36,150 nt of DNA, from the NCBI GenBank assembly GCA_018400405.1, contig JAGYMX010000002.1, positions 1 through 36,150 of the forward strand. The letters run 5' to 3'. A program made the position numbers and the translations under genes. Source of the stretch: a bacterium (GTDB lineage: Bacteria > Patescibacteriota > Minisyncoccia > Minisyncoccales > PWPS01). Below are positions 4,700-29,802 of the stretch, piece after piece; within the stretch, counting starts at the first letter, position 1; the number at the start of each line of letters is the position of its first letter. A model generated the notes under the pieces. That model was not told where the DNA came from, ran no database searches, and saw nothing but the letters and a program-made list of their open reading frames with translations.

Positions 4700-5080
4700 T
4701 TAGCAGCCAATTGTTATTTCTGGCCACTGAACGTCAACTACTCCAAGAGCGTTTAAAATCATAGAGATTAAAAAGTGAGAACCGTAAACAATAACGATTC
4801 CAACAACTACACTCATTAGTATTTTTCTGCCTTGCTCTACTCCTGCAGGGTTTCCCATTGATGTATAAAACTTTATTCCTCCCCAGATAAAAAGCATTGC
4901 GGCAACAGGTGGAACAATACTAAAAAGAAGAAACTCTAAAATATTTACAAAAAGCTGGAAAAGGTGACAAAGTTGGCAAGGAGGCTGTCCTGGGCCCCCA
5001 CAAGGGACAAGACCTTGTGCAAACCCAATAGCAGGAAAAAGTAGTAAAAACAGAAAAATAGAATTTTTTATTTTTTTCAT
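4700..5080 (-). CDS. Small secreted/membrane Cys-containing protein, T4SS-pilin-like (TrbC/VirB2-type family common in CPR genomes)
   Basis: 126 aa. Signal peptide MKKIKNSIFLFLLLFPAIGFAQG, then LVPCGGPGQPPCQLCHLFQL and two hydrophobic helices (…PPVAAMLFIWGGIKFYTS…, …ILMSVVVGIVIVYGSHFL…). This layout matches my recollection of Pfam T4SS_pilin (PF18895). Family assignment is from memory. Confidence 0.55.
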   Translation of the reverse strand: MKKIKNSIFLFLLLFPAIGFAQGLVPCGGPGQPPCQLCHLFQLFVNILEFLLFSIVPPVAAMLFIWGGIKFYTSMGNPAGVEQGRKILMSVVVGIVIVYGSHFLISMILNALGVVDVQWPEITIGC

Positions 5081-10662: not shown

Positions 10663-12192
10663 ATGGAACAGATAATTTTACTCATAACAGGAACTATCTC
10701 TTTAGTTGTTGGTGCAGTTTTGGGATATTTTGCGAGACAATCAATTGCAAAAAGAGATTACAAAGCGTTAGAAACAAAAGTACAGAGTCGGATTGATTAT
10801 GCAAAAAAGAAAAGTAAGGAGATAATTATTGAAGCGAAAAAAAAATACGCGGAAATAATAGAGACAGGAAGAAAAGAAACGGAAGAAAAAAATGAAGAGC
10901 TTTTCAAAAGAGAGAAGTTTCTTTTAAAAAGAGAAAATACATTAGATCAGAGAATTTCGGATTACGAAAGAAAAGAAAAAATCTTTAACCAGAGAGTGAA
11001 AAGGTTAAGGGAGCTAAAAGAGGAGATGGATGAAATAAAAAAGAAAGCGGAAGAGGAACTTATGAAAGTTGCCGGACTCTCTAAAGAAGAAGCAAAAGAA
11101 GAACTTTATAACGTGCTCGAAAAAGAGTACGAGATGGATATTTTAGAAAGGATAAATAAGCTTGAGAAAGAAGGAGAAGAAAGATATTTAAGTAGAGCAA
11201 AGGAGATACTTTCTTCTGTTATCCAAAAATACTCTTCTTCTCAAGTTCAAGATTTGACAACAACAAATGTTAGTTTACCCGATGATGATATTAAAGGAAG
11301 AATTATTGGAAAAGAAGGAAGAAATATTAAAACTTTAGAAAAACTTACAGGAGCAGAGGTTGTTGTGGATGATACACCAGGTGTAGTGATTATTTCTAGT
11401 TTTGATCCTATAAGAAGGCAGATAGCAAAAACAGCTCTAGAAAAGCTTATTTTTGATGGAAGGATTCAGCCAGCAAGAATTGAAGAGATGGTAGAACGGG
11501 CAGAAGAAGATATTTCTGATGAAATAAAGAAGGCGGGAGAAGGCGCTGTTTATGAAACAGGAATTATTGATCTTGACCCAAAAGTAGTAAATCTTTTAGG
11601 GCGACTTCGTTTCCGTTCAAGTTACGGACAAAATGTTTTAAATCACTCTTTGGAGGTGTGTTTCTTGGCGGAAGCTCTTGCTGCAGAGATAGGAGCAGAT
11701 ACCTCTGTTTGTAAAAAAGCAGGCCTTTTACATGATATAGGGAAGGCTCTTGATCATCAGGTAGAAGGATCTCATGTGGATATTGGGATGAGAGTTCTAC
11801 AAAAGTTTGGGGTTGAAGAAGAAGTAATTAATGCGATGAAGTCGCATCACGAAGAATACCCCTATGAAAGCATAGAAGCAGTAATTGTACAGACCGCAGA
11901 TGCGATCTCTGGAGGAAGACCGGGAGCAAGAAAAGACACCTTAGAAAACTATCTAAAAAGGTTGGGAGAACTAGAAGAGGTGGCAAACTCTTTCTCTGGA
12001 GTAGAAAAAACTTATGCGATTCAAGCAGGAAGAGAAGTAAGAGTTTTTGTGAGACCAGAAGAAATTGGTGATTTAGAGGCAAAAAAAATGGCACGAGAAA
12101 TAGCAAAAAGAATACAGTCCGAACTAAAGTATCCAGGAGAGATAAAGATAACCCTTATAAGAGAAAGTAGGGTTATTGAGTATGCAAAATAA
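10663..12192 (+). CDS. rny: Ribonuclease Y
   Basis: 509 aa. N-terminal TM helix (IILLITGTISLVVGAVLGYF), coiled coil, KH (GRIIGKEGRNIKTLEKLTGAEVVVDD), HD domain (…LLHDIGKALDH…). Confidence 0.93.
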   Translation: MEQIILLITGTISLVVGAVLGYFARQSIAKRDYKALETKVQSRIDYAKKKSKEIIIEAKKKYAEIIETGRKETEEKNEELFKREKFLLKRENTLDQRISDYERKEKIFNQRVKRLRELKEEMDEIKKKAEEELMKVAGLSKEEAKEELYNVLEKEYEMDILERINKLEKEGEERYLSRAKEILSSVIQKYSSSQVQDLTTTNVSLPDDDIKGRIIGKEGRNIKTLEKLTGAEVVVDDTPGVVIISSFDPIRRQIAKTALEKLIFDGRIQPARIEEMVERAEEDISDEIKKAGEGAVYETGIIDLDPKVVNLLGRLRFRSSYGQNVLNHSLEVCFLAEALAAEIGADTSVCKKAGLLHDIGKALDHQVEGSHVDIGMRVLQKFGVEEEVINAMKSHHEEYPYESIEAVIVQTADAISGGRPGARKDTLENYLKRLGELEEVANSFSGVEKTYAIQAGREVRVFVRPEEIGDLEAKKMAREIAKRIQSELKYPGEIKITLIRESRVIEYAK

Positions 12193-12214
12193 AGAGCTAA
12201 AAAAAGAAAGAAAA

Positions 12215-12243
12215 ACACCGTCAAAACAGACGGTGTTTTTTTT
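12215..12243. terminator. Bidirectional intrinsic terminator between rny (+) and the tRNA-Gly/Pro unit (-)
   Basis: acaccgtc-aaaaca-gacggtgt forms an 8-bp stem, flanked by an A-run on the left and a T-run on the right (12237-12243). Confidence 0.8.
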
Positions 12244-12244
12244 G

Positions 12245-12316
12245 AGCGGGCGATGGGAATCGAACCCACATCACGACCTTGGAAGGGTCGGGTAATAGCC
12301 TTTATACCACGCCCGC
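12245..12316 (-). tRNA. tRNA-Gly (anticodon TCC), no encoded CCA
   Basis: GCGGGCG TG GTAT AAAGGCTA TTAC C CGACC CT-TCC-AA GGTCG TGAT GTGGG TTCGATT CCCAT CGCCCGC T. U73 discriminator, as in bacterial tRNA-Gly. Confidence 0.9.
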
Positions 12317-12365
12317 GACGTGTATATTTTATAACAAAATCTTTATAAGGCAAGATGTCAAAAAT

Positions 12366-12436
12366 TCGGAGAGCCGGGATTCGAACCCGAACTACATCCT
12401 CCCAAAGGATGCGTGCTGCCGTTACACCACTCTCCG
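12366..12436 (-). tRNA. tRNA-Pro (anticodon TGG), no encoded CCA
   Basis: CGGAGAG TG GTGT AACGGCA GCAC G CATCC TT-TGG-GA GGATG TAGT TCGGG TTCGAAT CCCGG CTCTCCG A. C1:G72 pair present. Confidence 0.9.
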
Positions 12437-12499
12437 GAACTATTTACAAAAAGAATTATAGCAGATATTTATTTTTACTAAAAGGAAGTTTAAAATTTA

Positions 12500-12528
12500 T
12501 TGGCAAGGAATGGGCGATGTGATAAGAT
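12500..12528 (+). promoter_or_regulatory. Candidate promoter for the exonuclease/sensor operon (TTGGCA-17 nt-TAAGAT)
   Basis: TTGGCA at 12500-12505, 17-nt spacer, TAAGAT at 12523-12528. Only 9 nt lie before the ATG at 12538, and there is no SD. Confidence 0.35.
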
Positions 12529-12537
12529 GATCTTAAT

Positions 12538-13473
12538 ATGAAAAGAGAAAAACTTCTTCTTTTTGATACAAACTCTATTATCCATCGTGCTTTTCACGCG
12601 TTACCTCCCTTAAAAGATAGTGAGGGCAATCCAGCAGGAGCACTTTACGGATCGCTTCTCGCGTTTTTTAAGATTCTTCAAGAAATTAATCCTTGCTATG
12701 TGGCTGTTGCTTTTGATTCTCCCGGAAAAACTTTTCGCCACAAAAAATATAAAGAATATAAAGCCAACCGACCGAAAGCGCCGGAAGAATTGATATCCCA
12801 AATTAAAAAAACAAAAGAAGTTTTTGCAAAAATAGGGGTAAAAGTTTTTTCCAAAGAAGGATTAGAGGCGGATGATATTGTCGGTGCGATTTCTTATCAA
12901 GCTCCTCAAGAAATTGAAACAGTAATTGTTACTGGAGATGCTGATATTCTTCAGCTTGTCAATGAAAAAACAAAAGTATATACTTTAAAAAGAGGAGTAA
13001 AAGAGACTGTTCTTTATGATAAAGAAAGGGTGAAAGAAAAGTACGAAGGAGTTGGTCCGGAAAAAATAATAGAGATAAAGTCGCTTCAAGGCGACCCTTC
13101 AGACAATATTCCGGGAGTTAAGGGGGTAGGTAAAAAAACAGCAGTAAAGCTTATTAGGGAGTTTAAGAATTTGGAAAATCTTTATATCTCTCTTGAAGAT
13201 GGAAAGTGTGATTCTTTCTCTGAAGGATTAAAAAAGAAACTTTTGATGGGCAAGAAATCAGCATTTCTTAGCAGGGAGTTGGCAGAAATAAAAAAAACAG
13301 ATTTTTTAAAAGTTGATTTCTCAGAGCTCTTTTTTGAAAAAGACAATGTAAAGATAAAAAATATTTTGGAAGAACTTGGGTTTTCAAGTGTCGCAAAAAG
13401 ATTTTCGGCGGAAAATTTTTTAGAAAAGAAAACATCTCACGAGAAAGAAAAAAATTTGAAATTTAATTTTTAG
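12538..13473 (+). CDS. Stand-alone 5'-3' exonuclease / flap endonuclease (Pol I N-terminal domain family)
   Basis: 311 aa. LLLFDTNSIIHRAFHALPPL…GNPAGALYGSL…VAVAFDSPGKTFRHKKYKEYKANR…EADDIVG…VTGDADILQLV…LQGDPSDNIPGVKGVGKKTAVKLI (H3TH). No polymerase domain follows. Confidence 0.85.
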   Translation: MKREKLLLFDTNSIIHRAFHALPPLKDSEGNPAGALYGSLLAFFKILQEINPCYVAVAFDSPGKTFRHKKYKEYKANRPKAPEELISQIKKTKEVFAKIGVKVFSKEGLEADDIVGAISYQAPQEIETVIVTGDADILQLVNEKTKVYTLKRGVKETVLYDKERVKEKYEGVGPEKIIEIKSLQGDPSDNIPGVKGVGKKTAVKLIREFKNLENLYISLEDGKCDSFSEGLKKKLLMGKKSAFLSRELAEIKKTDFLKVDFSELFFEKDNVKIKNILEELGFSSVAKRFSAENFLEKKTSHEKEKNLKFNF

Positions 13474-13486
13474 GAAGAAGCAATTG

Positions 13487-14089
13487 ATGTATTACAATAT
13501 AAATAAAGAGACAATAAGTGCGATGATGAGTGTTCCTGGAGAGGTGCGAGGAAGTGTTCTGAAAAAGGATGAAAGTTACATACTGATGAAAGAAGGAGAG
13601 AGGAAGTTAAAAGAAGTAGAAAAAGAGATAAAGGAGATGGGGTGTGCCTTTTCTTATAAAGATATAAAGAACAGTAGTTTTTATCCTTGGGGGGAAAGAG
13701 TTCTTTCTCTTTTGGCGATAAGTATGGTGCTTAATATGGACAAAGAAAAAATAAAAGAAATGGGAAGATGTGCAGTAGAAGACACCTTTTTTGCGCGTTT
13801 TTTTATGCGCTACTTTCTTTCTCTTGAAAGTGTTTTTCAAAAAGTTTCTCGGATGTGGAGGAAGAGAAATACTATTGGAAGATTAGAGGTGGAAGAGATA
13901 GATAAAAAAAGAAGAAAAGTTGTTCTTCATCTTTATAATCTAAATTTTCACCCTATTTTTTGTGATTATCTTTGTGGATATTTTTCAAAAATTGGAAGTG
14001 TGGCACAAGGAAAAGAAGTGACCTGCAAAGAAGAAAGGTGCTATTTTAAGGGAGAAAGTCCCTTTCACGAGTTTATCTTAAGATGGTAA
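13487..14089 (+). CDS. V4R/DUF2378-like putative sensor-domain protein, paralog 1 of 4
   Basis: The ORF track starts at TTG 13484; ATG 13487 is preferred (GGAAGAAG SD at 13473-13480). Shares GEVRG, FYP, KEMG, FFMRYFLS, HPIFCDYLCGYF and C-term …ERCYFKGESPFHEFILRW with the next three ORFs. Confidence 0.8.
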   Translation: MYYNINKETISAMMSVPGEVRGSVLKKDESYILMKEGERKLKEVEKEIKEMGCAFSYKDIKNSSFYPWGERVLSLLAISMVLNMDKEKIKEMGRCAVEDTFFARFFMRYFLSLESVFQKVSRMWRKRNTIGRLEVEEIDKKRRKVVLHLYNLNFHPIFCDYLCGYFSKIGSVAQGKEVTCKEERCYFKGESPFHEFILRW

Positions 14090-14091
14090 AT

Positions 14092-14688
14092 ATGACCTAT
14101 AACATAACAAAAGAAGAAGAAAAAAAAATAAAAAATATAAAAGGAGAAGTACGTGGAGCAGTGTTTTTAACAGACAAAAGTTTTATTTTGCAAAAAGGGG
14201 GTGAAGCAAAACTTAAGCAGGTAGAGGAAGAGCTTGCAAAGAATGGCTTTCCAATTTTTTTTGAAAATATACGAGCAATGGAATTTTTTCCCTATCCTGC
14301 AAGAATTTTTTCTATTATTGTTACAGAAAAAGTATTAGATCTTGGGAGAGAGGGAGTAAAGGAAATGGGGATAAATGCTCCAAAGATGTCTTTTTTGATA
14401 AAGTTTTTTACAAATTATTTTTTATCTATCAGTAAAACATTAGAAAAAACGGGAGAGATATGGAGTAAACACGCTACTACTGGCACAGTAAAGCTGCTTG
14501 AGGTTAATGAAGAAGAAAAGTACGCAGTTTTTACTTTTCAAGGTGTTTATTTCCCAGAAATTTACTGTGATTATCTTACAGCATACCTTGGAAAAATTAT
14601 ATCCATGGCGCTTGGAGCTAAAAAAGAAGCAAGAACAGAGTGGAAAACAGAAAGCGAAGAAAATTATAGAGTAAAAGTATCTTGGTAA
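14092..14688 (+). CDS. V4R/DUF2378-like paralog 2 of 4 (divergent C-terminus)
   Basis: ATG 14092 (MTYNITKEE…) is preferred over ORF-track ATG 14083, because paralog 4 begins MTYQITDEE…. Keeps GEVRG, KEMG, SFLIKFF.NYFLS and CDYL, but lacks the HP…C…H motif set (FPEIYCDYL…ARTEWKTESEENYRVKVSW). Confidence 0.8.
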   Translation: MTYNITKEEEKKIKNIKGEVRGAVFLTDKSFILQKGGEAKLKQVEEELAKNGFPIFFENIRAMEFFPYPARIFSIIVTEKVLDLGREGVKEMGINAPKMSFLIKFFTNYFLSISKTLEKTGEIWSKHATTGTVKLLEVNEEEKYAVFTFQGVYFPEIYCDYLTAYLGKIISMALGAKKEARTEWKTESEENYRVKVSW

Positions 14689-14692
14689 AAAA

Positions 14693-15310
14693 ATGGTTTA
14701 TGAAAACGAAAAAAATTTAGAAAGAGTAAAAAACATAAAAGGAGAAGTCCGAGGGGTTACTTTAAAAACTGACGAGTATTACGTATTAAAAAAAGAAGGC
14801 GAAGAAACATTAGAGAACGTAAAAAAGGAGCTGGAAAGATTAGGTGCGGGTTTTTGCTATGAAGATTTAGATAAGATGAACTTTTATCCGATATCTTTTC
14901 GTATTTTTTCTCTTCTGGCAATAAGCAAAGTGCTACAGTATGAAAGAGAAGATATAAAAGAAATGGGGAAGGCAGCACCAAGGGTCTCTTTTCTTATAAA
15001 GTTTTTTACAAAATATTTTCTTTCTTCGGGAGAAACACTTAAAAAAGTAACAGAGATGTGGGAAAAACATTATACAGAAGGAAAGATAGAGGCAGTAGAA
15101 GTAAAAGAAGACGAAGGAAGGGCAATTTTTCGTCTTCATGAAGCTAACTTTCATCCTATCTTGTGCGATTATCTTTTAGGTTATTTTTCTTCTATTGTTT
15201 CTATGGTTGTTGGAGAAAAAACAAAAGAAGAAGAAAGAAAATGTTTTTTCCGAGGAGATAAGTACCACGAGTTTTACATAACATGGAAACCGTCAAAAGG
15301 AAAAAACTAA
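14693..15310 (+). CDS. V4R/DUF2378-like paralog 3 of 4
   Basis: 205 aa. GEVRGVTLKTD…FYPISFRIFSLLAIS…KEMGKAAPRVSFLIKFFTKYFLS…EMWEKHYTEG…HPILCDYLLGYF…ERKCFFRGDKYHEFYITW. Confidence 0.8.
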   Translation: MVYENEKNLERVKNIKGEVRGVTLKTDEYYVLKKEGEETLENVKKELERLGAGFCYEDLDKMNFYPISFRIFSLLAISKVLQYEREDIKEMGKAAPRVSFLIKFFTKYFLSSGETLKKVTEMWEKHYTEGKIEAVEVKEDEGRAIFRLHEANFHPILCDYLLGYFSSIVSMVVGEKTKEEERKCFFRGDKYHEFYITWKPSKGKN

Positions 15311-15344
15311 AATTTTATAGTTATAAAAATTAAAAAACAAAGAT

Positions 15345-15947
15345 ATGACCTATCAAATAACAGATGAAGAAATTAATAAAATATTAAGTGCAAAAGGAGA
15401 AGTCCGGGGAGTAGTTTTTAAGACCGATAGACATTTTATTATAAATAGAGCAGGAGAAGATGGGTTAAAAAAAGTAGAAGAAGAATTAAAAAAAATGAAC
15501 TGTTCTTTTGACTACGAAGAAGAAGCAGACAACATGAGTTTTTATCCTATCGGTATGCGTGCAATGTCTATTATTGCCATCAGTAAAGCATTTAACCTTG
15601 ATAGAGAGGGAGTAAAGGAGATGGGGTTCCAAGCTCCGAAATTTTCTCTTATGATAAAGTTTTTTATGCGCTACTTTCTTTCTGCAGAAAAAATTATGGA
15701 GAAGGCGGGAGAGATGTGGAAGAAACACTACACCGTGGGGAAGTTAGAATCTGTAGAATTGAATATGGAAGAAAAGATTTTACGTGCACATCTTTATGAT
15801 ATTGATCTCCACCCTATTTTTTGTGATTATCTTTGTGGATATTTTGGATCTGTGATTAAAATGGGTGTAGGAGAAGATGTAAAAAGTGAAGAAGAAAAAT
15901 GTATTCATCAAGGAGACGAGTATCATGAGTTTGTAATAAGATGGTAG
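15345..15947 (+). CDS. V4R/DUF2378-like paralog 4 of 4
   Basis: 200 aa. GEVRGVVFKTD…FYPIGMRAMSIIAIS…KEMGFQAPKFSLMIKFFMRYFLS…EMWKKHYTVG…HPIFCDYLCGYF…EEKCIHQGDEYHEFVIRW. Its stop overlaps the next ATG (ATGGTAG, 15941-15947). Confidence 0.8.
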   Translation: MTYQITDEEINKILSAKGEVRGVVFKTDRHFIINRAGEDGLKKVEEELKKMNCSFDYEEEADNMSFYPIGMRAMSIIAISKAFNLDREGVKEMGFQAPKFSLMIKFFMRYFLSAEKIMEKAGEMWKKHYTVGKLESVELNMEEKILRAHLYDIDLHPIFCDYLCGYFGSVIKMGVGEDVKSEEEKCIHQGDEYHEFVIRW

Positions 15948-16501
15948 AAAAAGAAGAAAAAATAAAAACCCTTTCCGAGGACATAGCTTTACTTGAAAGC
16001 TATATTGAGGATTTGTTTTCCTTTACCCCTCTTCCACTGTGTTTTGTTAATCCGAAAGGAATGGTTTTAGAAGTTAATCCTGCTTTTATGAAGGTGACTG
16101 GGTATAACGAGTATGACGTTATCGGAGAAAGCTTGTTTTCTTTTATGGAAAAAGAAGACGCAGAAAACATACTAAAAGAAGCAATAGAAAAAGATATTGT
16201 TGAAGGAAAAGAAACGAAGATAAAAACAAAAGAGGAAGAGTATATTCCTGTTACCGCTTTTGCAAAAAGACGGAAAGTAAAAGGCGAAGGAGTAAACGGA
16301 GCGTTTTTTTCTTTTTTCGATCTTGCGGAAATAAAGAAAAAAGAGGAGGAGGTAAAAAAAACGAATAAAAAATTAGAGGAAAAAATAGAAGAGATGGAAA
16401 AGATAAACAGATTGACGATAGGAAGAGAACTTAAAATGGTAGAATTAAAAGAAAAAATAGAAAAATTAGAAAAAGAGCTAAAGAATTATAAAAAGAGTTA
16501 A
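15941..16501 (+). CDS. Soluble PAS-domain protein with C-terminal coiled coil (paralog of the kinase N-terminus)
   Basis: 186 aa. …YIEDLFSFTPLPLCFVNPKGMVLEVNPAFMKVTGYNEYDVIGESLFSF… (PAS S-box), then a Lys/Glu heptad-rich tail …KKLEEKIEEMEKINRLTIGRELKMVELKEKIEKLEKEL. Confidence 0.75.
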   Translation: MVEKEEKIKTLSEDIALLESYIEDLFSFTPLPLCFVNPKGMVLEVNPAFMKVTGYNEYDVIGESLFSFMEKEDAENILKEAIEKDIVEGKETKIKTKEEEYIPVTAFAKRRKVKGEGVNGAFFSFFDLAEIKKKEEEVKKTNKKLEEKIEEMEKINRLTIGRELKMVELKEKIEKLEKELKNYKKS

Positions 16502-16503
16502 GA

Positions 16504-18264
16504 ATGACAGAAGAAGAAACAAAAGAAGAGTTTTTAGAGGAAGACGGAGGAGAGCTTGAAGATCTTCGCCGATATATAGAAGATTTTACCTCTTTTCTTC
16601 CTTTGGCTTTTTGTATGGTCAATCCCCTTGATTATATACTTGACAGCAACAAGGCGTTTCAAGATATTACGGGATATGAAAAGATGGAGGTTATCGGGAG
16701 CAATATAGGAATTCTTTTCAAAAACAAGGGAAAGCTGGAAAGTTTTATTGCTCGAGTGGCAAGTAAAAGCACGGCAGTAGAAGAAGAAGTGACTCTTATT
16801 ACGAAAGAAAAAAAAGAAATCCCGGTAAAAATTTCTGCTCTTTCAAGAAAAGATGAAGAAGGAAGCTTTTCTGGATATTTTCTTACAATTAGTGACATCA
16901 CAGAGACAAAAAGATTTGAAGAGGAACTGGAAAGAAAAATAAAAGAGAGGACAGAAGAGTTGGAAAGAGCAAAAGAAAGACTGGAAGAATCGGAAGCAGT
17001 TTTAGAGGTAAAAATTAAAGCACGCACGAAAGAACTTGCAGAGTTAAATGAAAATCTTGAAGAGAAGGTAAAAGAAAGAACAAGTGAACTTGAAGAAAGA
17101 ACGGAAGATCTGGAAAGAAAAACAAAAGAAATGGAACAGACACAAACAGCACTTCTCAATTTAGCGGAAGATGCCGATGAGTCCTTACATGAGGCAGAGA
17201 AAGAAAAAGAAAAAACAGAAGCAATTATTAAAAGTTTTGTTGATGGTCTTTTCTTTTTTGATCCGGAGAAAAACTTATCGTTAGCAAATCCGAAAGCGGA
17301 AGATATGTTTGATGTGAAATCAAGAGATATTGTTGGGCGATCAACAAAAGAACTGAGAACATTTCCAACTCTTAAACCACTTATTAATTTAGTGGGAAGG
17401 GATATTAAAAATATTTTCCGAGAAGAAATTTCTGTTGGAGAAAATATTTATTTTGAGGTTACAACAATTCCTATTAAACACGAGAAAAGAGATATTGGTA
17501 CCTTGATCAATGTACATGATATTACAAGAGAGAAAAGCATTGAGAAAATTAAAAGTGAGTTTGTTTCTGTTGCTGCCCATCAACTGCGTACACCTCTTGC
17601 TGGAATAAAGTGGACACTTCAAACAATATTAGAAGAAGGAGAGACAGAAAATGTTCCAGAAGAAATTATTGAGTTTATCAAGAGAGCATATGAAGCTAAT
17701 GACCGAATGGTAAACTTGGTAAACGATCTTTTAAATGTAACGCGTATTGAAGAAGGAAGATATGTTTATGAACCAGAAGTAACGGATCTTATGGAAGTTA
17801 TAAACCCTATTGTTGAGGACTATAAAAATCACATTGAAAAAAAGGGGCTTCGCTTTGAGTTTAAAAAACCAGAAAAAGAGCTTCCGAAAGTAAAGATAGA
17901 CAAGGAAAAGATAGGGATCGTTGTACAAAACTTTTTAGATAATGCGATGAAATATACGAAAGAAGGAAAAGTAACTCTTGAAATAAGGTATAGTGAAGGA
18001 AAAATAAAAATCTCTGTTACCGATACGGGGGTGGGAATACCGGAAGATCAACAAAAACGCCTTTTTAACAAGTTCTTTCGTGCGGCAAATGTTCAGCGAA
18101 TGGATACAGAAGGATCAGGGCTGGGACTTTTTATTGCAAAAAACATTGTTGATGCTCATAAAGGAAAGATAGGGTTTGTTTCTAAACCTGGAAAAGGAAC
18201 CTCTTTCTACTTTACTCTTCCTGAGAGCAAAGGTGAGGTGGATGAGTTCTTTAAATCTTTTTAA
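16504..18264 (+). CDS. Cytoplasmic sensor histidine kinase: PAS - coiled coil - PAS - HisKA - HATPase_c
   Basis: 586 aa with no hydrophobic TM segment. PAS1 …YIEDFTSFLPLAFCMVNPLDYILDSNKAFQDITGYEKMEVIG…. Coiled coil with repeated ERT.EL motifs (KERTEELERAKERLE…KARTKELAELNENLEEKVKERTSELEERTEDLE). PAS2 …FVDGLFFFDPEKNLSLANPKAEDMFD…. H-box EFVSVAAHQLRTPL, N-box VVQNFLDNAMKYT, G1 VTDTGVGIP, F LFNKFFR, G2 GSGLGLFIAKNIV. Confidence 0.9.
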   Translation: MTEEETKEEFLEEDGGELEDLRRYIEDFTSFLPLAFCMVNPLDYILDSNKAFQDITGYEKMEVIGSNIGILFKNKGKLESFIARVASKSTAVEEEVTLITKEKKEIPVKISALSRKDEEGSFSGYFLTISDITETKRFEEELERKIKERTEELERAKERLEESEAVLEVKIKARTKELAELNENLEEKVKERTSELEERTEDLERKTKEMEQTQTALLNLAEDADESLHEAEKEKEKTEAIIKSFVDGLFFFDPEKNLSLANPKAEDMFDVKSRDIVGRSTKELRTFPTLKPLINLVGRDIKNIFREEISVGENIYFEVTTIPIKHEKRDIGTLINVHDITREKSIEKIKSEFVSVAAHQLRTPLAGIKWTLQTILEEGETENVPEEIIEFIKRAYEANDRMVNLVNDLLNVTRIEEGRYVYEPEVTDLMEVINPIVEDYKNHIEKKGLRFEFKKPEKELPKVKIDKEKIGIVVQNFLDNAMKYTKEGKVTLEIRYSEGKIKISVTDTGVGIPEDQQKRLFNKFFRAANVQRMDTEGSGLGLFIAKNIVDAHKGKIGFVSKPGKGTSFYFTLPESKGEVDEFFKSF

Positions 18265-18271
18265 AATTTAT

Positions 18272-18300
18272 TTGACAATATTTTTTAATACAGATACAAT
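18272..18300 (+). promoter_or_regulatory. Sigma70-like promoter for the two response-regulator genes (TTGACA-17 nt-TACAAT)
   Basis: TTGACA at 18272-18277, 17-nt spacer, TACAAT at 18295-18300. Starts 8 nt after the kinase stop and lies 40 nt before the ATG at 18341. Confidence 0.5.
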
Positions 18301-18340
18301 GCAGTAAAGGTTTAATCTAAATTATACTTTTTATATAAAT

Positions 18341-18808
18341 ATGAAGAAGATTATTATTGTTGAAGATGAAGAAATTCTTCGCAATCTCTTGCACAAGAAA
18401 CTTGGAAATGAAGGGTATGATGTTGATGTTGCTGAAAACGGAGAAGAAGGTCTTTCTAAAATAAAAGAAAACAAGCCAGACCTTATCCTTTTAGATATTA
18501 TTATGCCTAAGATGGGAGGATTTGAGATGCTTGAAGAGATGCAAAAAGAAGAAGAGCTCTCTAAAATACCAGTAATTGTTGTTTCTAACTCTGGACAACC
18601 TGTAGAAATTGATCGTGCACAAAAACTTGGAGCAAAAGATTGGTTGGTAAAAACAGAGTTTGACCCACAAGAAGTAATTGATAAAGTTGTCACGCAGATT
18701 GGGAAAGGAGAAAAAGAAGATTTTATAGAGGAAAAAAAAGAAGAAATAGAAGAGGAAAGAGAAGAAAATTTAAAAGATAATCCTGAAGAAGAAAACAAGG
18801 AATTTTAA
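18341..18808 (+). CDS. Response regulator, receiver domain plus acidic Glu/Lys-rich tail (no output domain)
   Basis: 155 aa. IIIVEDEE…, phospho-acceptor Asp in PDLILLDIIMPKMGGFE, VVSNSG, GAKDWLVK. The tail is KEDFIEEKKEEIEEEREENLKDNPEEENKEF. Confidence 0.88.
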   Translation: MKKIIIVEDEEILRNLLHKKLGNEGYDVDVAENGEEGLSKIKENKPDLILLDIIMPKMGGFEMLEEMQKEEELSKIPVIVVSNSGQPVEIDRAQKLGAKDWLVKTEFDPQEVIDKVVTQIGKGEKEDFIEEKKEEIEEEREENLKDNPEEENKEF

Positions 18809-18853
18809 AATTAATTATTAAAATTAGTAAATTTATAAATCAAAAGGTTAAGT

Positions 18854-19216
18854 ATGGCTAAAATATTAGTCGTTGAAGACGACAAATTTCTTCGGGAAAT
18901 GATTTCCCGAAAATTGGATAAAGAGGGTTATGAAGTAGTACAAGCAGTTGATGGAGAAAAGGGAGAAGAGATGATAAAGAGTGAAAAACCAGACCTTGTA
19001 CTTCTTGACCTTATACTGCCAGGAATTGACGGATTTGATGTTTTAGAAAGAACAAAAAAAGATCCGGAAGTTGCTGGGATACCAGTAATTATTCTTTCCA
19101 ATTTAGGGCAAAAGAGTGAAGTAGAGAGAGGGCTCAACCTTGGTGCAGTAGATTTTCTCATTAAAGCTCACTTTACTCCCGCAGAAATAGTAAAAAAAAT
19201 CAGAGAAACGATTTAA
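18854..19216 (+). CDS. Single-domain (CheY-like) response regulator
   Basis: 120 aa. ILVVEDDKFLRE…, PDLVLLDLILPGIDGFD, VIILSNLG, GAVDFLIKAHFTP. Confidence 0.9.
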   Translation: MAKILVVEDDKFLREMISRKLDKEGYEVVQAVDGEKGEEMIKSEKPDLVLLDLILPGIDGFDVLERTKKDPEVAGIPVIILSNLGQKSEVERGLNLGAVDFLIKAHFTPAEIVKKIRETI

Positions 19217-19250
19217 TTTTTACTTACCAAGTGTAAGTAAAAGAAACTGT

Positions 19251-20096
19251 ATGCCGGAGTTACCCGAAGTAGAAACTACTGTTTCCATGTTAAAATCAAA
19301 GACCTTAGGAAAGGTCTTTTTTTCCATATGGGCAGAAGACGGAAATGAAAAAAGATTAAAAGAAGCAAAAAATAAAAAAATAAAAGAGATAAAAAGGTTC
19401 GGGAAAAGTATAATTTTTTTCTTAGAGGGAAATGTTTTTCTTTTTGTTCATCTTCGGATGACGGGGCACTTTCTTTTTGGAAAATGGGAAAAAAAATTTT
19501 TCTCAGGAGGAGTTACTTGGGTAAGTAGAGAGAAGGTGATGAAAGAAAGAAAGAACGGGTTTTTAAGATATATATTTTTTTTAGATGATGGGAATCAAAT
19601 CGCTCTTTCTGATCAAAGAAAATTTGCAAAAGTAAAGGTTATCTCCAAAGAAGAAATGGAAAAACACATTGCACGGCTTGGTCCTGATCCACTTTTAATT
19701 ACAAAGGAAGAATTTTTTAAGCTTTTTAAGAACAAAAAAAAAGCAATAAAACCTCTTCTTATGGATCAAAGCTTTCTTTCTGGGATAGGTAACATATATG
19801 CAGCAGAGGTTCTTTTTAAAGCGAAAGTAGATCCAAAGAAAAAAGCAAATTATTTAACAGAAAAGGAAAAAGAAGATATTTACTTTTTTATAAAAAATAT
19901 ATTAAAAAAAGCATTAAAACTTAAAGGAGATAGTACAAGTGATTACCGTCTTTTGACGGGCGAGAAAGGAGGATATCAAGATCACCATCTTGTTTATAAC
20001 AGAGCGGGATTACATTGCTTTGTTTGCAAAGAAAAAATAAAAAGAGTTAATATCGGTGGAAGAGGAAGCTACTTCTGTCCGAAATGTCAAAAATAA
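19251..20096 (+). CDS. mutM: Formamidopyrimidine-DNA glycosylase (Fpg/MutM family)
   Basis: 281 aa. N-terminal MPELPEVETT, H2TH region …LMDQSFLSGIGNIYAAEVLFKA…, C-terminal zinc finger CFVCKEKIKRVNIGGRGSYFCPKCQ. Confidence 0.88.
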   Translation: MPELPEVETTVSMLKSKTLGKVFFSIWAEDGNEKRLKEAKNKKIKEIKRFGKSIIFFLEGNVFLFVHLRMTGHFLFGKWEKKFFSGGVTWVSREKVMKERKNGFLRYIFFLDDGNQIALSDQRKFAKVKVISKEEMEKHIARLGPDPLLITKEEFFKLFKNKKKAIKPLLMDQSFLSGIGNIYAAEVLFKAKVDPKKKANYLTEKEKEDIYFFIKNILKKALKLKGDSTSDYRLLTGEKGGYQDHHLVYNRAGLHCFVCKEKIKRVNIGGRGSYFCPKCQK

Positions 20097-21049
20097 AACA
20101 AATGATAATTTTACTTTACGGAAAAGATACTTACCGCTTACAAGAGAAGATGAAAGAAATTATTGCTGAATACAAAAAAAAGCACTCTAGTGGTCTTAAT
20201 CTTAAATTTTTGGGAGAAAAAGAATCTCTCCAAAATGCATGTGATTACGATAAACAGTTTTCTATGTTTGGAGAAAAACGTCTTCTTGTTGCTTGGAACA
20301 TTTTTTTTACAGAGAAAAATCGCGACGATTTTTTAAAAGAGAAGAAAAGATTTATTTCTTCGGAAAATATTTTTCTTTTTTATGAAGAAAAAGATTTCAA
20401 AAAAAGTGATCAGTTTTTAAAAACTATTGAAAAAGAGAAAGAGAAAGAACCAAAAAATGTAATAATCCAAAAATTTTCTCCTCTTTCTGGAAAAAGTCTT
20501 TTTTTATGGATTAAAAAAGAATTTGAAAAAGAAGGTGTAAATATAGAAGAAAAGGCAGTGAACCTTCTTCAAAAAATAGGCGGAGAAGATCTTTGGAAAA
20601 TAAAAAACGAGATAGAGAAAATTTCTCTTTATAAAAAAGATATAAGCATAGAAGATGTTACTTTTATGTCAAAAATAGGAGTAGAAACAAATATCTTTAA
20701 GACGGTGGACGCGATAGGAGAGAAAGAAAGAGAAAAAGCACTTTTTCTTTTTTATGATCACTTGCAAAAAGGAGATAATCCTCTCTATCTTTTTTCTATG
20801 ATTGTTTATCAGTTCCGAAATCTTATAGTCGTTAGTGATCTTATGAGAAGAAATGTTTCTTATGAAGAGATGAAGCAAAGAAGTGGGCTTCATCCTTTTG
20901 TTTTTAAAAAAACATATCATCAAGTAAAAAAGTTTTCTTTTTCTGAACTTCAAGATATTTATAGCAAGCTTTCCCTTACGGACAGAAAAATAAAAACAGG
21001 GCAGATAGACCCTGTTTTAGGAATTCAGTTGCTTCTTTTTTCTCAGTAG
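20084..21049 (+). CDS. holA: DNA polymerase III delta subunit (HolA-like)
   Basis: 321 aa. …IILLYGKDTYRLQEKMKEII…FGEKRLLV… and C-terminal …NIFKTVDAIGEKEREKALFLFYDHLQKGDNPLYLFSMIVYQFRNLIVV fit the HolA layout. Starting at 20084 overlaps mutM by 13 nt; ATG 20102 (MIILLYG…) is an alternative. Confidence 0.65.
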   Translation: MSKIKQMIILLYGKDTYRLQEKMKEIIAEYKKKHSSGLNLKFLGEKESLQNACDYDKQFSMFGEKRLLVAWNIFFTEKNRDDFLKEKKRFISSENIFLFYEEKDFKKSDQFLKTIEKEKEKEPKNVIIQKFSPLSGKSLFLWIKKEFEKEGVNIEEKAVNLLQKIGGEDLWKIKNEIEKISLYKKDISIEDVTFMSKIGVETNIFKTVDAIGEKEREKALFLFYDHLQKGDNPLYLFSMIVYQFRNLIVVSDLMRRNVSYEEMKQRSGLHPFVFKKTYHQVKKFSFSELQDIYSKLSLTDRKIKTGQIDPVLGIQLLLFSQ

Positions 21050-24428: not shown

Positions 24429-25976
24429 TTATAAATCTTTTACCATATAGCTTCCCCTTAACTGGTATCCAAGATTTTTCCAGTAATCTCTTACTCCCAC
24501 TCCGGAAATTACGGCAACACGCTTTTTTTTGAACTCTTCTCTCGTTATCTTTTCTGCTATCTTTACCAGTTTTTTCCCCATTCCCTTGTGTTGAGGAGAG
24601 CTTTTGTTTTGTCCTTTGACAGGGAGATGCAAGCCGTAGGTTTTTATCTCTCGTATTATTGCAGAGTTTTTTAAAGAAAGAAAAGGAGTTTTTTCTGGTT
24701 TTCGTAATCGTAAAAGAGCAAAAAGTTTACTTCTATCTTTGTTTTCTAAAGAAAGAAAAATCTCATTTCCCTTTGAAGCAAGATAATTTTCTCGGAAAAG
24801 ATAGACTTTTTCAGAAGGGTTGTATGATTCTTTTACTTCTCGACACCGAATACAGCGACATCTCCACTTTTCTTTTTCTGCTACTTTTGCGACAACTTCT
24901 CTTAAGTTTGAAACCTTGCATCCCGCGAAAATGTGTTTTGCGGGAATATCTCGGAAAAGGCGCTGGATGCGGACATAATAAGGAATGATGTCTTTTTTTA
25001 TTTTTGCAATTATTTTTACAAGTTGTTTTTCACTAAAAGGAGTATACTTTCCTTTTTTAAAAAGAGAGAAAAGTTCTGTATTAGCAATGACAAGGCAAGG
25101 ATATATTTTTAAAAAGTCCGGTTGGTAATCAGAATTTTGAAAAAGCTCTTTAAATGTTTTTATGTCTTTTTGAGGAGTGCTTTTGGGCAGGTTTAACATT
25201 ACTTGATAACAAATCTTAAAACCCGCATCTTTTAGAAGTTTTGTTGCCCTTATCGTTGATTCTGTGGTGTGACCTCTTTTTATAAAAGAAAGAACATTGT
25301 TATCTACAGACTGCACCCCGAGCTCTACCATCGTCACTCCGAGAGCACGCATTTCTTTTATTTCTTCTTTTGTTATAAAATCTGGTCTTGTCTCTATAGA
25401 AAGACAAACAATGCGGTGTTTTGCTTTTTCGTTTTTTCTCTGTGATTCTTTGAGTGTTTTGCTTTTCTTTTTATTGCACGCATCAAAACAATTTTTAACA
25501 AACCATCTCCTGTATTTTTTTGGATAAAAAGACCATGTTCCTCCAACAATGCGAAGCTCTATCTTTTCTGTCGGATGCCCTGTTTTTTCTAATGCTTCTA
25601 TCCTTTTTGTAGTTTGTTTTGCCGGATGGTAGTTACTCATCCATGCACGCATTGCGGCTGGTTCGTCTTTTAAGTAACTTTTTGGTGATGCCTTTTCATC
25701 TGGACAGTAGATACATTTTCCAGGGCAAGGGAATGGCTTTGTGAGAACGGAAATATTAACTACCCCAGAAAGAGAACGAACGGGACGTGTTCGAAGAAGA
25801 GAAACTGTCTGTTCCTTACTTCCTCCCATTTTGTGATAGAATTGGAGGAGATGGACATTGGAAAGAAAAGAAGTTTTATATTTTTTTGCAAAAATTTTCT
25901 TTATCTTTTCAAGATCTTTTGCCGTTGTTACTTCTCCTTGGTCAATTTTTTTAATTATTTCTTTTTCAATTTTCAT
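24429..25976 (-). CDS. elp3: Elp3-family radical-SAM/GNAT tRNA uridine(34) modification enzyme
   Basis: Start trimmed to ATG 25976 (MKIEKEIIKKIDQG…); the 67 extra N-terminal residues in the ORF track overlap the divergent gene. Radical SAM cluster motif …KPFPCPGKCIYCPDE…, Elp3-type core …RIVGGTWSFYP…, …LSIETRPDFI…, …GVTMVELGVQS…. GNAT C-terminus QHKGMGKKLVKIAEKI…RVAVISGVGVRDYWKNLGYQLRGSYMVKDL. Confidence 0.85.
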   Translation of the reverse strand: MKIEKEIIKKIDQGEVTTAKDLEKIKKIFAKKYKTSFLSNVHLLQFYHKMGGSKEQTVSLLRTRPVRSLSGVVNISVLTKPFPCPGKCIYCPDEKASPKSYLKDEPAAMRAWMSNYHPAKQTTKRIEALEKTGHPTEKIELRIVGGTWSFYPKKYRRWFVKNCFDACNKKKSKTLKESQRKNEKAKHRIVCLSIETRPDFITKEEIKEMRALGVTMVELGVQSVDNNVLSFIKRGHTTESTIRATKLLKDAGFKICYQVMLNLPKSTPQKDIKTFKELFQNSDYQPDFLKIYPCLVIANTELFSLFKKGKYTPFSEKQLVKIIAKIKKDIIPYYVRIQRLFRDIPAKHIFAGCKVSNLREVVAKVAEKEKWRCRCIRCREVKESYNPSEKVYLFRENYLASKGNEIFLSLENKDRSKLFALLRLRKPEKTPFLSLKNSAIIREIKTYGLHLPVKGQNKSSPQHKGMGKKLVKIAEKITREEFKKKRVAVISGVGVRDYWKNLGYQLRGSYMVKDL

Positions 25977-25979
25977 AGA

Positions 25980-26642
25980 ATGAAGAAAAAAGAAGCTCAA
26001 AAAATAATGGAAGAGCTGCGAGATGATTATAACGCGGTAGCCTCTTCTTTTGCAAGCACACGGGATCGTTTGTGGCCAGAAATGAAGTTTCTTTTCAGGG
26101 GTGCAGAAGAAGGTGAAAGGGTTCTTGACATAGGGTGTGGAAACGGAAGATTTTCTCGTTACCTTGAAAAAACACACTACACAGGAGTTGATTTTTCAGA
26201 GAAGATGATTAAAGAAGCAAAAAAGCGGTTTCCTAAAAAAAACTTTATTATAGGGAATGCTCTTTCGCTTCCCTTTATAAGCGACACTTTTTCCAAGGTG
26301 TACAGTATTGCTGTTATTCACCAGATTCCTTCTCCTGAGAATCGAAGAAGATTTGTTTTAGAAGCAAAAAGAGTCCTTTCTCCTGGAGGAAAACTTTTCT
26401 TGACTGCTTGGAATATAAAAAAAGGAAGAAGTTTTTTTTGCGCAAAAGAAGCGATAAAAAATTTTTTTTCTTCTAATTTTCTTGGGAAAAAAGATATTTA
26501 TTTAAAAAGAAAAAGATATTATTATCTTTTTTCCCAAAAAGAACTTTCTTCTCTTGTTGTTTCTTGCAAAATGAAAATAGAAGAAGAAGGAGAAGTAAAA
26601 AAAGGAAAAAGAAGTAATTTTTATATCATTGCGAAAAAGTAA
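25980..26642 (+). CDS. Class I SAM-dependent methyltransferase, Trm9/ALKBH8-MT-like
   Basis: Start trimmed to ATG 25980 (MKKKEAQKIMEELRDDYNAVASSFASTRDRLWPEM…). …YNAVASSFASTRDRLWP… then VLDIGCGNGRFSRYL (motif I), …NALSLPFISDTFSKVYSIAVIHQIPSPENRRRFVLEAKRVLSPGGKLFLTAWN. These parallel yeast Trm9 …YNEIAPHFSQTRYKPWP…DVGCGNGKYL…SIAVVHH…GGQALIYCWA as I recall it. Confidence 0.65.
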   Translation: MKKKEAQKIMEELRDDYNAVASSFASTRDRLWPEMKFLFRGAEEGERVLDIGCGNGRFSRYLEKTHYTGVDFSEKMIKEAKKRFPKKNFIIGNALSLPFISDTFSKVYSIAVIHQIPSPENRRRFVLEAKRVLSPGGKLFLTAWNIKKGRSFFCAKEAIKNFFSSNFLGKKDIYLKRKRYYYLFSQKELSSLVVSCKMKIEEEGEVKKGKRSNFYIIAKK

Positions 26643-29414: not shown

Positions 29415-29458
29415 GATGTTTGTTATTAGTTTTTTGAAAAGTTTTTGATAAATTATTG

Positions 29459-29802
29459 TGGAGATGGGGGGATTGATCCCCCGTCCGGAACTTCAAAAAA
29501 AATAATTCTACAGGATTATCCCGATTCAGTAACGGCAAGATATAAATCGGGCAAAAATCTTGTCGTTTGGCTTTTTTAGCTTCAAAGATAAAAGGTAAAG
29601 CCGTTTCCTTTTATCTTCTATCCTCATATATGACACCTTTTCTACCTATGAGGAATCGGTAGAGAGGCGCCTACATTACGCTAATGCTAACGCAGGTTCC
29701 TTTTTGAATAAGTTGACACTTATTTTTAAGGTTGCAAGTTTAGCGAGATTACGCTCGTCCTGCCTTATTTTCTCCGGGAACTCCGTCGAAACGAACATCC
29801 CC
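29459..29802 (-). ncRNA. ssrA: tmRNA (SsrA), one-piece, no encoded CCA
   Basis: Minus strand 5' GGGGATGTTCGTTTCGACGGAGTTCCCGG… and 3' …GGACGGGGGATCAATCCCCCCATCTCCA. The acceptor GGGGATG/CATCTCC carries the G3:U70 pair. Internal tag frame …GAA CCT GCG TTA GCA TTA GCG TAA (…EPALALA*). Lies directly downstream of smpB. Confidence 0.9.

Follow-up and report, generated by a model that had tools for sequence, protein, structure and literature searches.

What do four tandem genes for proteins of about 200 amino acids do beside a soluble histidine kinase in a bacterium of the candidate phyla, organisms with very small genomes that are mostly uncultured and in which little is known about sensing? The question is raised by a 36,150-nt stretch of DNA (GCA_018400405.1, contig JAGYMX010000002.1, positions 1–36,150 of the + strand; Patescibacteriota, Minisyncoccales, PWPS01), which we call the window. 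Here, the four paralogs, p1 to p4, are followed by a kinase-less PAS protein with a coiled-coil tail, by the kinase and by two receiver-only proteins, REC1 and REC2. By analogy with the H-NOX/HnoK systems, p1–p4 may be accessory cytoplasmic input proteins that control the adjacent soluble PAS kinase, a reading to which we assign a probability of roughly one half. The signalling unit itself is conserved across many candidate-phyla bacteria with tiny genomes. In the literature that we covered, which is incomplete so that absence is unproven, we came across neither a report of such a module in Patescibacteria nor one of V4R-type proteins that partner kinases.

All eight open reading frames (ORFs) are present on the + strand, and the junctions between them are as described in the initial annotation of this stretch. 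The paralog genes are separated by gaps of 2, 4 and 34 nt, p4 and the PAS gene share the 7-nt overlap ATGGTAG (15941–15947), the kinase gene starts 2 nt after the PAS gene, and the stop codon of a 5'-3' exonuclease gene lies 13 nt upstream of p1. Other starts are possible further upstream for p1 (TTG at 13484) and p2 (ATG at 14083); the family alignment favours those given in Table 1. The four proteins are clear paralogs, with 34–45% mutual identity, 45 invariant alignment columns and phmmer scores of 130–208 bits against each other, far past chance. The motifs ascribed to all four are generally present, except that p2 lacks C...GD.YHEF and has PE for HP, and that p1 has RMWRKRN for EMW.KHY. 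As had been claimed, none of the eight proteins carries a transmembrane (TM) segment or a DNA-binding domain: the hydropathy scan gave no convincing TM segment, the sole value above the 1.6 cut-off (1.63, in p3) belonging to a buried alpha-G helix common to all paralogs, and the Pfam domains recognised in them are limited to PAS, HisKA, HATPase_c and Response_reg.

A scan of one genome per species yielded 34 loci, which were annotated with profiles of the window proteins and 32 of which are evaluable for kinase adjacency. Judging by their titles, almost all of these loci come from metagenome-assembled genomes of Patescibacteria (Nealsonbacteria, Wildermuthbacteria, Paceibacterota), and two of the genomes are complete (0.65 and 0.69 Mb). 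The recurring gene order is exonuclease, optionally a kinase-less sensor, one to five V4R-like genes, a PAS coiled-coil gene in close relatives, kinase, REC, REC, Fpg and holA. An orthologous soluble PAS-PAS-HisKA-HATPase kinase adjoins the V4R-like gene or genes in 27 of the 32 evaluable loci, which bears out the kinase linkage for which the initial annotation had proposed a neighbourhood survey. The V4R-like and kinase genes overlap at 12 of 20 junctions, by 7 or 10 nt in 11 cases and by 49 nt in one, and the V4R-like and PAS coiled-coil genes overlap by exactly 7 nt at 11 of 15. The kinase gene and the first REC gene never overlap, their median gap being 73 nt. The gene order is conserved and translationally coupled, and the layout, a stand-alone gene kept in the kinase operon across species, is that of an accessory sensor. 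The same layouts occur on independent metagenome contigs that were reached through the tail motif described below (e.g. L054, L041, L058 and L122). Adjacency with overlaps persists down to ~40% protein identity while the other neighbours change, and the module is kept in the genomes of 0.65–0.69 Mb (L030 and L032). When the window proteins are compared with their orthologues in two close relatives (L002 and L003; Table 1), p4, the PAS protein, the kinase and the REC proteins retain 69–91% identity versus 55–65% for the flanks, so the core signalling proteins appear to be under stronger constraint; within the unit, conservation is highest for REC2. Because conservation of the unit exceeds that of the adjacent repair and replication genes, it is probably important to these organisms.

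Among 1.84 billion representative proteins, the family to which p1–p4 belong has 812 matches at E ≤ 1e-3, 305 of which reach E ≤ 1e-30. Nearly all members are stand-alone proteins of ~200 aa, and the family has yet to receive a curated model. From the family alignment, AlphaFold gave a confident model of p4 (predicted local distance difference test, pLDDT, 91.9; predicted TM-score, pTM, 0.89). Its best Foldseek matches in the PDB are full-length H-NOX proteins and beta chains of soluble guanylate cyclase (sGC; E ~3e-6, TM-score 0.6–0.68, ~190 columns), and the 33 top matches are all H-NOX or sGC beta (TM-score 0.5–0.68, 188–199 columns). MopR, PoxR and TRAPPC3 (TRAPP Bet3) come next, with E ~3e-5 and a probability of 1.00; the TM-scores of MopR and PoxR (0.47–0.50) are below the 0.6–0.68 of H-NOX. 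The model has the overall H-NOX fold, an N-terminal helical and a C-terminal alpha/beta subdomain in ~185 aa, as well as the alpha/beta fold of V4R and Bet3, in which a four-stranded antiparallel sheet lies on helices. H-NOX, V4R and Bet3 families are already treated as one fold group, and p4, as modelled, falls in this superfamily. The comparison with H-NOX, drawn in the initial annotation as an analogy, therefore extends to a shared predicted fold, with no kinship at the level of sequence. In the same model, the conserved H128 closes, on the C-terminal side, the helix that precedes strand 1, a position whose match to the H-NOX proximal His of helix alpha-F is not established.

Among Pfam families, V4R (PF02830; COG1719) is the only recurrent match, found in 30 of 51 family members at E ≤ 1 (best E 5.4e-7), and a precomputed PF02830 match is present on some database relatives. 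The resemblance to V4R that had been noted in the C-terminal residue pattern holds for the family, through this match, the predicted metal tetrad and the fold, and does not hold as membership of the window copies, which score below the threshold, with no match at all for p2. Under the Pfam rule the family would be a divergent V4R relative, not a clean member. The other resemblance that had been suggested, to DUF2378/TIGR02265 (PF09536), is rejected: no Pfam or NCBIfam match to it at E ≤ 1 occurs in the four paralogs, nor does any of the 51 family members match. We take DUF2378 to belong to the same Pfam clan as V4R and HNOB.

The V4R side of the family is most apparent in its putative metal site. 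In a search of PDB sequences the family profile gave a marginal match to MopR only (E ~0.3), which is not significant alone and was used for aligning the metal site. Aligned on MopR residues 154–191, C160/E183/C186/H194 correspond to MopR C155/E178/C181/C189, and the spacing of the tetrad (23/3/8) is identical to that of XylR C149/E172/C175/C183. In MopR, PoxR, DmpR and XylR, these C/E/C/C residues are zinc ligands, the first Cys lying on the long helix and being followed by Glu-x2-Cys and by a last Cys in the beta-hairpin. The C-E-C-H tetrad is retained in ~56 of 64 family members of the related loci and is strongly conserved among kinase-proximal copies; it is absent from the window p2 and from two copies of L008. 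In the window, the predicted site is found in p1, p3 and p4, with His instead of Cys as the fourth ligand. From the model and the alignment, the family appears to join an H-NOX-like overall fold with a V4R-type Cys-Glu-Cys-His metal site, in which the metal is presumably a structural zinc. A conserved His-Pro precedes the first Cys of the tetrad, and many of the conserved residues of the family are aromatic or polar, as is typical of pockets (F66, Y67, F107, F111, W125, K127, H128, Y162 and Y166). The H-NOX/V4R/Bet3 superfamily thereby gains a family of several hundred sequence clusters that has no curated model, and an H-NOX-like architecture combined with a V4R zinc site in one family may help to explain how these sensor families relate to each other.

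A neighbour-joining tree resolves four orthologous paralog groups, all of which are present in the window, L002 and L003. The p3 group is missing from L001 and the p2 group from L006 and L008, whereas L007 has p4 only; p1 orthologues are found in L001, L002, L003, L006, L008 and L013. In most of the distant genomes there is a single V4R-like copy. Separate expansions are seen in L014 (five copies), L031 (three) and L034 (four), and metagenome contigs such as L041 and L058 encode at least five. Four is not a defining number, as copy number ranges from one to at least five, and the quartet is a lineage-specific expansion of one ancestral gene. The p4 protein, which has the full family consensus and is the most conserved of the four paralogs, is probably the ancestral copy. 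In p3, both C-E-C-H and W-K-H are retained, while p1 has an intact tetrad with W-K-R in place of W-K-H. The most divergent copy is p2, which has the longest branch, C-R-W-Y in place of the tetrad and, as judged by its identity to orthologues, the fastest evolution; its orthologues in L001, L002 and L003 retain the metal site. The AlphaFold model of p2, which leans on the family alignment, has a pLDDT of 90.9 and a pTM of 0.87. Tandem two-domain fusions of 405–410 aa also occur in the family (P0121, L036 4062–5279, and P0122) and point to pairing between copies.

The third component of the system is the PAS-only protein, which ends ...MEKINRLTIGRELKMVELKEKIEKLEKEL. Every complete related locus encodes a kinase-less protein ending in (E/D)LE(K/R)F.(K/R)(L/F).VGRE(L/I)KM(I/V)ELK, 9–28 residues ahead of the stop. 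In distant relatives this tailed, kinase-less protein is a membrane sensor whose gene lies 5' of the V4R-like gene, with examples of several membrane architectures in Table 1. In the membrane sensors, the tail is preceded by signalling-helix repeats of the ERT type, and similar repeats lie between the two PAS domains of the window kinase. In the clade of the window, the membrane sensor is replaced by a soluble PAS version, and the whole window system is therefore cytoplasmic. What the related loci have in common is a tailed sensor, one or more H-NOX/V4R-fold proteins, the soluble kinase and two REC proteins. The ancestral system is not membrane-less, given that the partner in relatives is usually a membrane sensor.

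The reciprocal scan of metagenomes with the back-translated tail motif recovered at least 120 loci (L037–L156). Among the matches listed, 124 ORFs of 52–1127 aa, with Cache, HAMP, 6–7TM or PAS regions, carry the motif. It lies 9–37 residues from the stop in 122 of them; in one ORF the distance is 86 residues, and one ORF ends at a contig edge. None of the 124 has a kinase core. The next gene in the 3' direction encodes a HisKA-type kinase in 33 cases, and five of ten sampled 3' neighbours from the remaining, "other" class are short soluble HisKA_2/HWE kinases, at least four of which have a gene start overlapping the stop of the sensor gene. In general, the separate kinase gene often begins at the sensor stop or overlaps it. 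A separate kinase is thus found directly 3' of at least 38 of the 124 listed tailed proteins, and a V4R-like neighbour, in the same layouts as in the related loci, accompanies 11. A kinase-less tailed sensor followed by a separate kinase is a widespread layout, and the V4R-like protein is an add-on in one organism group, not an obligatory connector. On one contig (L137, 4416–9618), a FIST_N+FIST_C protein of the NosP type directly follows the tailed sensor, with the kinase further 3', the same slot as that of the V4R-like genes. The V4R-like protein therefore occupies a slot which is filled elsewhere by a known type of stand-alone sensor.

The tail that defines this widespread class of kinase-less sensors, encoded beside separate kinases, is covered by no Pfam model, gave nothing against the PDB, and a description of the sensors that bear it was not found in the literature. 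A weak match (E 0.053) had raised the possibility that the tail is a degenerate dimerization and histidine phosphotransfer domain (DHp; HisKA_2). This is not supported, as only 4 of 28 tails match, amid generic coiled-coil families. A protein search with the tail profile gave nothing longer than 121 aa and was thus uninformative about copies within unsplit kinases. Among the listed matches of the metagenome DNA-pattern scan, the exact motif occurs only near C-termini, although the pattern used would miss diverged in-line variants; presumably, linkers resembling GRE.RM.ELK also exist within long kinases.

The window kinase is of the HisKA type (HisKA, 3.9e-15; HATPase_c, 2.6e-29 in Pfam), with the H-box H359 in HQLRTPL and with DTGVG (G1) and GSGLG (G2) boxes. 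Aligned with CheY, REC1 and REC2 keep the equivalents of D13, D57, S(T87) and K109 and have E at position 12; both are single-domain receivers, Response_reg being their only Pfam match. Judged by these residues, the kinase and both REC proteins are predicted to be catalytically competent. Residues 135–237 of the kinase (16906–17214) form a coiled-coil insertion of ~100 aa between the PAS domains, with the three ERT repeats KERTEEL, KARTKEL and KERTSEL. This insertion of the window clade is absent from the shorter kinases (~510 aa) of distant relatives.

The site TTGACA-17-TACAAT, which had been read as a promoter of the REC genes, is the best in the region 12100–19400, with 11 of 12 positions matched. 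TTGACA-17-TA[C/G/A]AAT is conserved in the kinase-REC gap of the window and of seven close relatives (L001, L002, L003 and L005–L008). The two hexamers (-35 and -10) and their 17-nt spacing persist in an otherwise diverging spacer, a phylogenetic footprint of what appears to be a real promoter. Together with the gene spacing, the conserved promoter supports the division, already made in the initial annotation, between a coupled six-gene unit and a separate REC unit.

Among the closest known systems is H-NOX/HnoK of Shewanella and Vibrio. Stand-alone H-NOX proteins encoded beside sensor-less kinases (HnoX/HnoK) bind these kinases and regulate their autophosphorylation. The likeness extends to a cytoplasmic protein of ~190–200 aa with the same overall fold, to a gene directly 5' of the kinase gene, to a kinase with no membrane sensor of its own and to several response regulators. 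Unlike H-NOX, the window family has no HNOB similarity or heme motif and carries a V4R-type metal site, and the system comprises one to five paralogs, a kinase-less tailed third component, a kinase with two PAS domains and REC-only regulators. By analogy, the window system would work like the H-NOX/HnoK class without being a member of it. NosP/NahK likewise pairs a stand-alone cytoplasmic sensor with an adjacent kinase, and a FIST protein takes the same slot in L137, but the NosP fold is unrelated. With the A domains of MopR, PoxR, DmpR and XylR, the window family has in common the alpha/beta half at the C-terminus and a metal tetrad that matches in both position and spacing. In addition, the conserved W125/H128 recalls the phenol anchor His106/Trp134 of MopR, a likeness whose positional equivalence is not established. 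These regulators differ in having Cys, not His, as the fourth ligand and in being fused to an AAA+ sigma-54 activator, whereas the window proteins are stand-alone, are partnered with a histidine kinase and fall under the Pfam V4R threshold. In split histidine kinases (Amin, Porter and Soyer 2013; CheA3/CheA4, Hik36-Hik43), the phosphoacceptor and ATP-binding parts are separated. The window system also spreads the functions of one kinase polypeptide over several co-encoded proteins. However, its kinase is whole, with HisKA and HATPase_c in one gene instead of DHp and ATP-binding parts in separate genes, and it is the sensor part that resides on separate proteins.

In the mechanism that we propose for p1–p4 as accessory inputs, translational coupling of the genes would keep these proteins at a constant ratio to the PAS coiled-coil protein and the kinase. 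They would bind either of the latter two, or both, and would modulate autophosphorylation or phosphatase activity of the kinase. The signal, perceived in an internal cavity, may be a redox change or a small ligand that is probably hydrophobic or able to cross membranes; the V4R domains of XylR, DmpR, MopR and PoxR hold phenolics in such a cavity. The kinase would then control the two receiver-only proteins expressed from their own promoter, which, having no output domain, must act through protein-protein contacts. The ancestral system may have consisted of one V4R-like protein, a kinase-less tailed sensor, usually membrane-bound, a kinase and two REC proteins. In the lineage of the window, a soluble PAS sensor would have been substituted and the H-NOX/V4R-fold gene amplified to four diverging copies, with p4 as the conserved core copy, p1 and p3 with altered pocket positions, and p2, devoid of the metal site, as a probably non-sensing partner. 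Ligand binding, physical interaction with the kinase, the sign of the effect and the output are steps that we infer. The general logic of an accessory sensor and a kinase is familiar, and the mechanism rests on analogy. With its eight soluble proteins, the locus offers a system in which the cooperation of a stand-alone sensor with a PAS coiled-coil protein and a kinase can be probed.

The order of the genes also resembles that of the domains in sGC, in which an H-NOX fold is followed by PAS and coiled coil, as p4 is by the overlapping PAS gene; the best structural matches of p4 include beta chains of sGC. In contrast to sGC, two polypeptides are involved here, output is through a histidine kinase, Pfam does not assign the PAS domain to the HNOBA type and there is no heme signature. 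The resemblance would be architectural only. A bolder version of the proposal, which we consider speculative and put forward with more doubt than belief, is that one or more H-NOX/V4R-fold proteins team up with a PAS coiled-coil protein, or with a membrane sensor that has the same tail, and so reproduce, on separate polypeptides, the regulatory architecture of sGC, gating a soluble kinase. It would be among the few conserved signalling devices of Paceibacteria-type genomes of ~0.65 Mb, and unusually well conserved by their standards. The diverging paralogs, four in the window and at least five elsewhere, would form heterodimers with combinatorial ligand specificity (e.g. for host metabolites or gases, in episymbiosis), and the tail, ELEKF.KL.VGRELKM.ELK, would be a general docking module through which kinase-less sensors engage separate soluble kinases, an arrangement of which we found no description.

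Several observations weigh against an input role of p1–p4 modelled on H-NOX. None of the window copies reaches the Pfam V4R gathering score of 31 bits (Table 1). HNOB (PF07700) is matched by none of the 51 family members at E ≤ 1 in Pfam, and hhalign of the family profile against Tt H-NOX, whose query sequence is identical to 1u4h_A, gives a non-significant probability of 0.2%. With no significant match in either search, we reject sequence-level kinship with H-NOX, and the link is one of fold only. Of 64 family members, a single one contains the heme motif Y-x-S-x-R, and its location there is not a conserved one; given this and the lack of sequence kinship, the ligand is not inferable from H-NOX. 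The MopR-type zinc site is structural, so its conservation is uninformative on sensing. Five of the evaluable loci lack an adjacent kinase: L004, in which REC is followed by a p4-like gene, and L009–L012, with V4R-like and PAS coiled-coil genes. No kinase is found within 7 kb on the contig of the tandem fusion P0121 (L036). Finally, most listed pairs of tailed sensor and kinase have no V4R-like gene, which is not obligatory to the coupling. To these points are added the links to receivers considered below as the second alternative. If the sensor idea is wrong, the locus is still a well-defined operon conserved in reduced genomes.

Of the alternatives, the one that survives best, and which we regard as rather unlikely, is that p1–p4 are scaffolds or adaptors, Bet3-like connectors that hetero-oligomerise and join the tailed sensor to the kinase, the signal being sensed by the Cache, HAMP, 7TM or PAS region of the partner. 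It would account for the position of the V4R-like genes, always between or beside those of the tailed sensor and the kinase and overlapping them, and for the persistence of the V4R-like and PAS coiled-coil pair in L009–L012. Pairing is suggested by the tandem fusions and is known from the literature for Bet3-family paralogs, which form homo- and heterodimers. A structural role could also explain why the ORF of the metal-less p2 remains intact, its orthologues being found in three related genomes and its fold still being predicted with confidence. However, coupling works without a V4R-like protein, as judged from the counts of kinases (at least 38) and V4R-like neighbours (only 11) among the 124 listed tailed proteins, and the idea of an obligatory adaptor between tail and kinase is weakened accordingly. 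Many conserved residues of the family are of the aromatic or polar kind typical of pockets, and a FIST sensor fills the same slot elsewhere. A related idea, one V4R-like protein per tailed sensor, is ruled out by observed ratios such as 4:1 (window), 5:2 (L014) and 1:2 (L024).

It is less probable still that the paralogs act on the output side, as partners or targets of the phosphorylated REC-only regulators, in a trans version of a REC-V4R protein. A natural REC-V4R-like fusion does exist (P0208, L035 6001–7065), next to sulfatase and glycoside hydrolase genes, a context atypical of candidate-phyla genomes. In L004 (7591–8600, 5-nt gap) and L095 (208–1858), a REC gene lies immediately 5' of a family member with no kinase in view. 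The fusion and these adjacencies hint at a functional link between REC and V4R-like proteins. Archaeal response regulators with the H-NOX/V4R-like output domain MetOD1 offer a precedent, and an output role would fit the lack of any recognisable output domain among the eight window proteins. Against this, the paralog genes are coupled to the kinase or PAS gene and not to the REC genes, which are always set apart by a non-overlapping gap and in close relatives have their own conserved promoter, and P0208 has no metal site and a different context.

A further, improbable alternative keeps p1–p4 on the input side and makes the Cys-Glu-Cys-His site itself the switch, the signal being oxidation or metal loss, in a way that would recall MsvR, a methanogen regulator whose V4R cysteines are redox-sensitive. 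The p4 protein has a weak NCBIfam match to MsvR (E 0.005, residues 60–198), the tetrad is strongly conserved in kinase-proximal copies, and the extra His-Pro ahead of the first Cys is conserved as well. MsvR and the archaeal REC-MetOD1 proteins are likewise Cys-rich V4R-type domains in signal transduction, MetOD1 having been described as similar to HNOB and V4R and as having conserved cysteines. These proteins are archaeal and fused to a helix-turn-helix domain or to REC, whereas the window proteins are bacterial and stand-alone, and the MsvR score of 16.6 bits is far under the threshold of 220 bits. Moreover, the equivalent site of MopR, PoxR, DmpR and XylR is a structural zinc ~10 Å from the ligand pocket, and paralogs that lack the site (the window p2 and the two copies of L008) are retained. 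That p1–p4 are carriers or enzymes, like BchJ or ATC hydrolase, which share only the operon is very improbable: the V4R superfamily does have non-signalling members and a few family members lack signalling neighbours (L036), but the overlapping adjacency is conserved to ~40% identity while other neighbours change, genomes of 0.65–0.69 Mb keep the module, and the window has no metabolic neighbours.

Table 1. Coordinates of the signalling locus and its flanks in the window, and of tailed sensors in related loci. Identity is that of the window protein to its orthologues in L002 and L003.
Feature	Position	Strand	Evidence or remark	Identity (%)
5'-3' exonuclease gene, left flank	12538–13473	+		65
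p1, V4R-like paralog, 200 aa	13487–14089	+	ORF, family alignment, Pfam V4R 13.2 bits	52–61
p2, V4R-like paralog, 198 aa	14092–14688	+	ORF, family alignment; no V4R match	49
p3, V4R-like paralog, 205 aa	14693–15310	+	ORF, family alignment; V4R 17.4 bits	61–64
p4, V4R-like paralog, kinase-proximal, 200 aa	15345–15947	+	V4R 20.0 bits, weak MsvR match, AlphaFold/Foldseek	74–77
Predicted p4 metal-site span	15822–15926	+	Profile alignment to MopR	
Predicted p4 metal-site codons	C160 15822–15824; E183 15891–15893; C186 15900–15902; H194 15924–15926	+		
Kinase-less PAS protein with coiled-coil tail, 186 aa	15941–16501	+	Pfam PAS_9 5.5e-12	69–77
Core of coiled-coil tail motif, RELKMVELK (within MEKINRLTIGRELKMVELKEKIEKLEKEL)	16424–16450	+	Sole copy in window	
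Soluble histidine kinase, 586 aa	16504–18264	+	PAS, S-helix coiled coil, PAS, HisKA, HATPase_c (Pfam, NCBIfam)	71–72
Sigma-70-type promoter-like site, TTGACA-17-TACAAT	18272–18300	+	5' of REC genes	
REC1, receiver-only, 155 aa, acidic C-terminal tail	18341–18808	+	Pfam Response_reg 8e-27	80
REC2, receiver-only, 120 aa	18854–19216	+	Pfam Response_reg 1.7e-25	88–91
Fpg/MutM and holA, right flank	19251–21049	+		Fpg 60–61; holA 55–58
Tailed sensor with dCache_1	L017 8733–9959			
Tailed sensor, 2TM-HAMP	L018 9055–10050			
Tailed sensor, 2TM-HAMP	L009 12478–13497	-		
Tailed sensor, 6TM PilS-like domain	L030 9096–9998			
Tailed sensor, 7TM-PAS	L033 8737–9957			

The remaining part of the window is housekeeping. 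It encodes PNPase, ClpP, RNase Y, the CCA-adding enzyme, TyrRS, NusA, IF3, L20, SmpB with tmRNA, ArgRS, a large class-I tRNA synthetase, RuvA and RecO. A full-length tmRNA is found by Rfam at 29456–29802 on the - strand (117 bits), beside smpB (29925–30380, -), with no report from ARAGORN. An ELP3-like radical SAM ORF (24429–26177, -) and a class I methyltransferase ORF (25833–26642, +) overlap by ~345 nt as listed; for one of the two, the GTG start probably lies too far upstream. Among the tRNA genes lie those of a divergent InlB B-repeat (Flg_new_2) protein (3771–4607, +) and of a small T4SS-pilin-like protein (4700–5080, -), possible cell-surface components within the housekeeping stretch.

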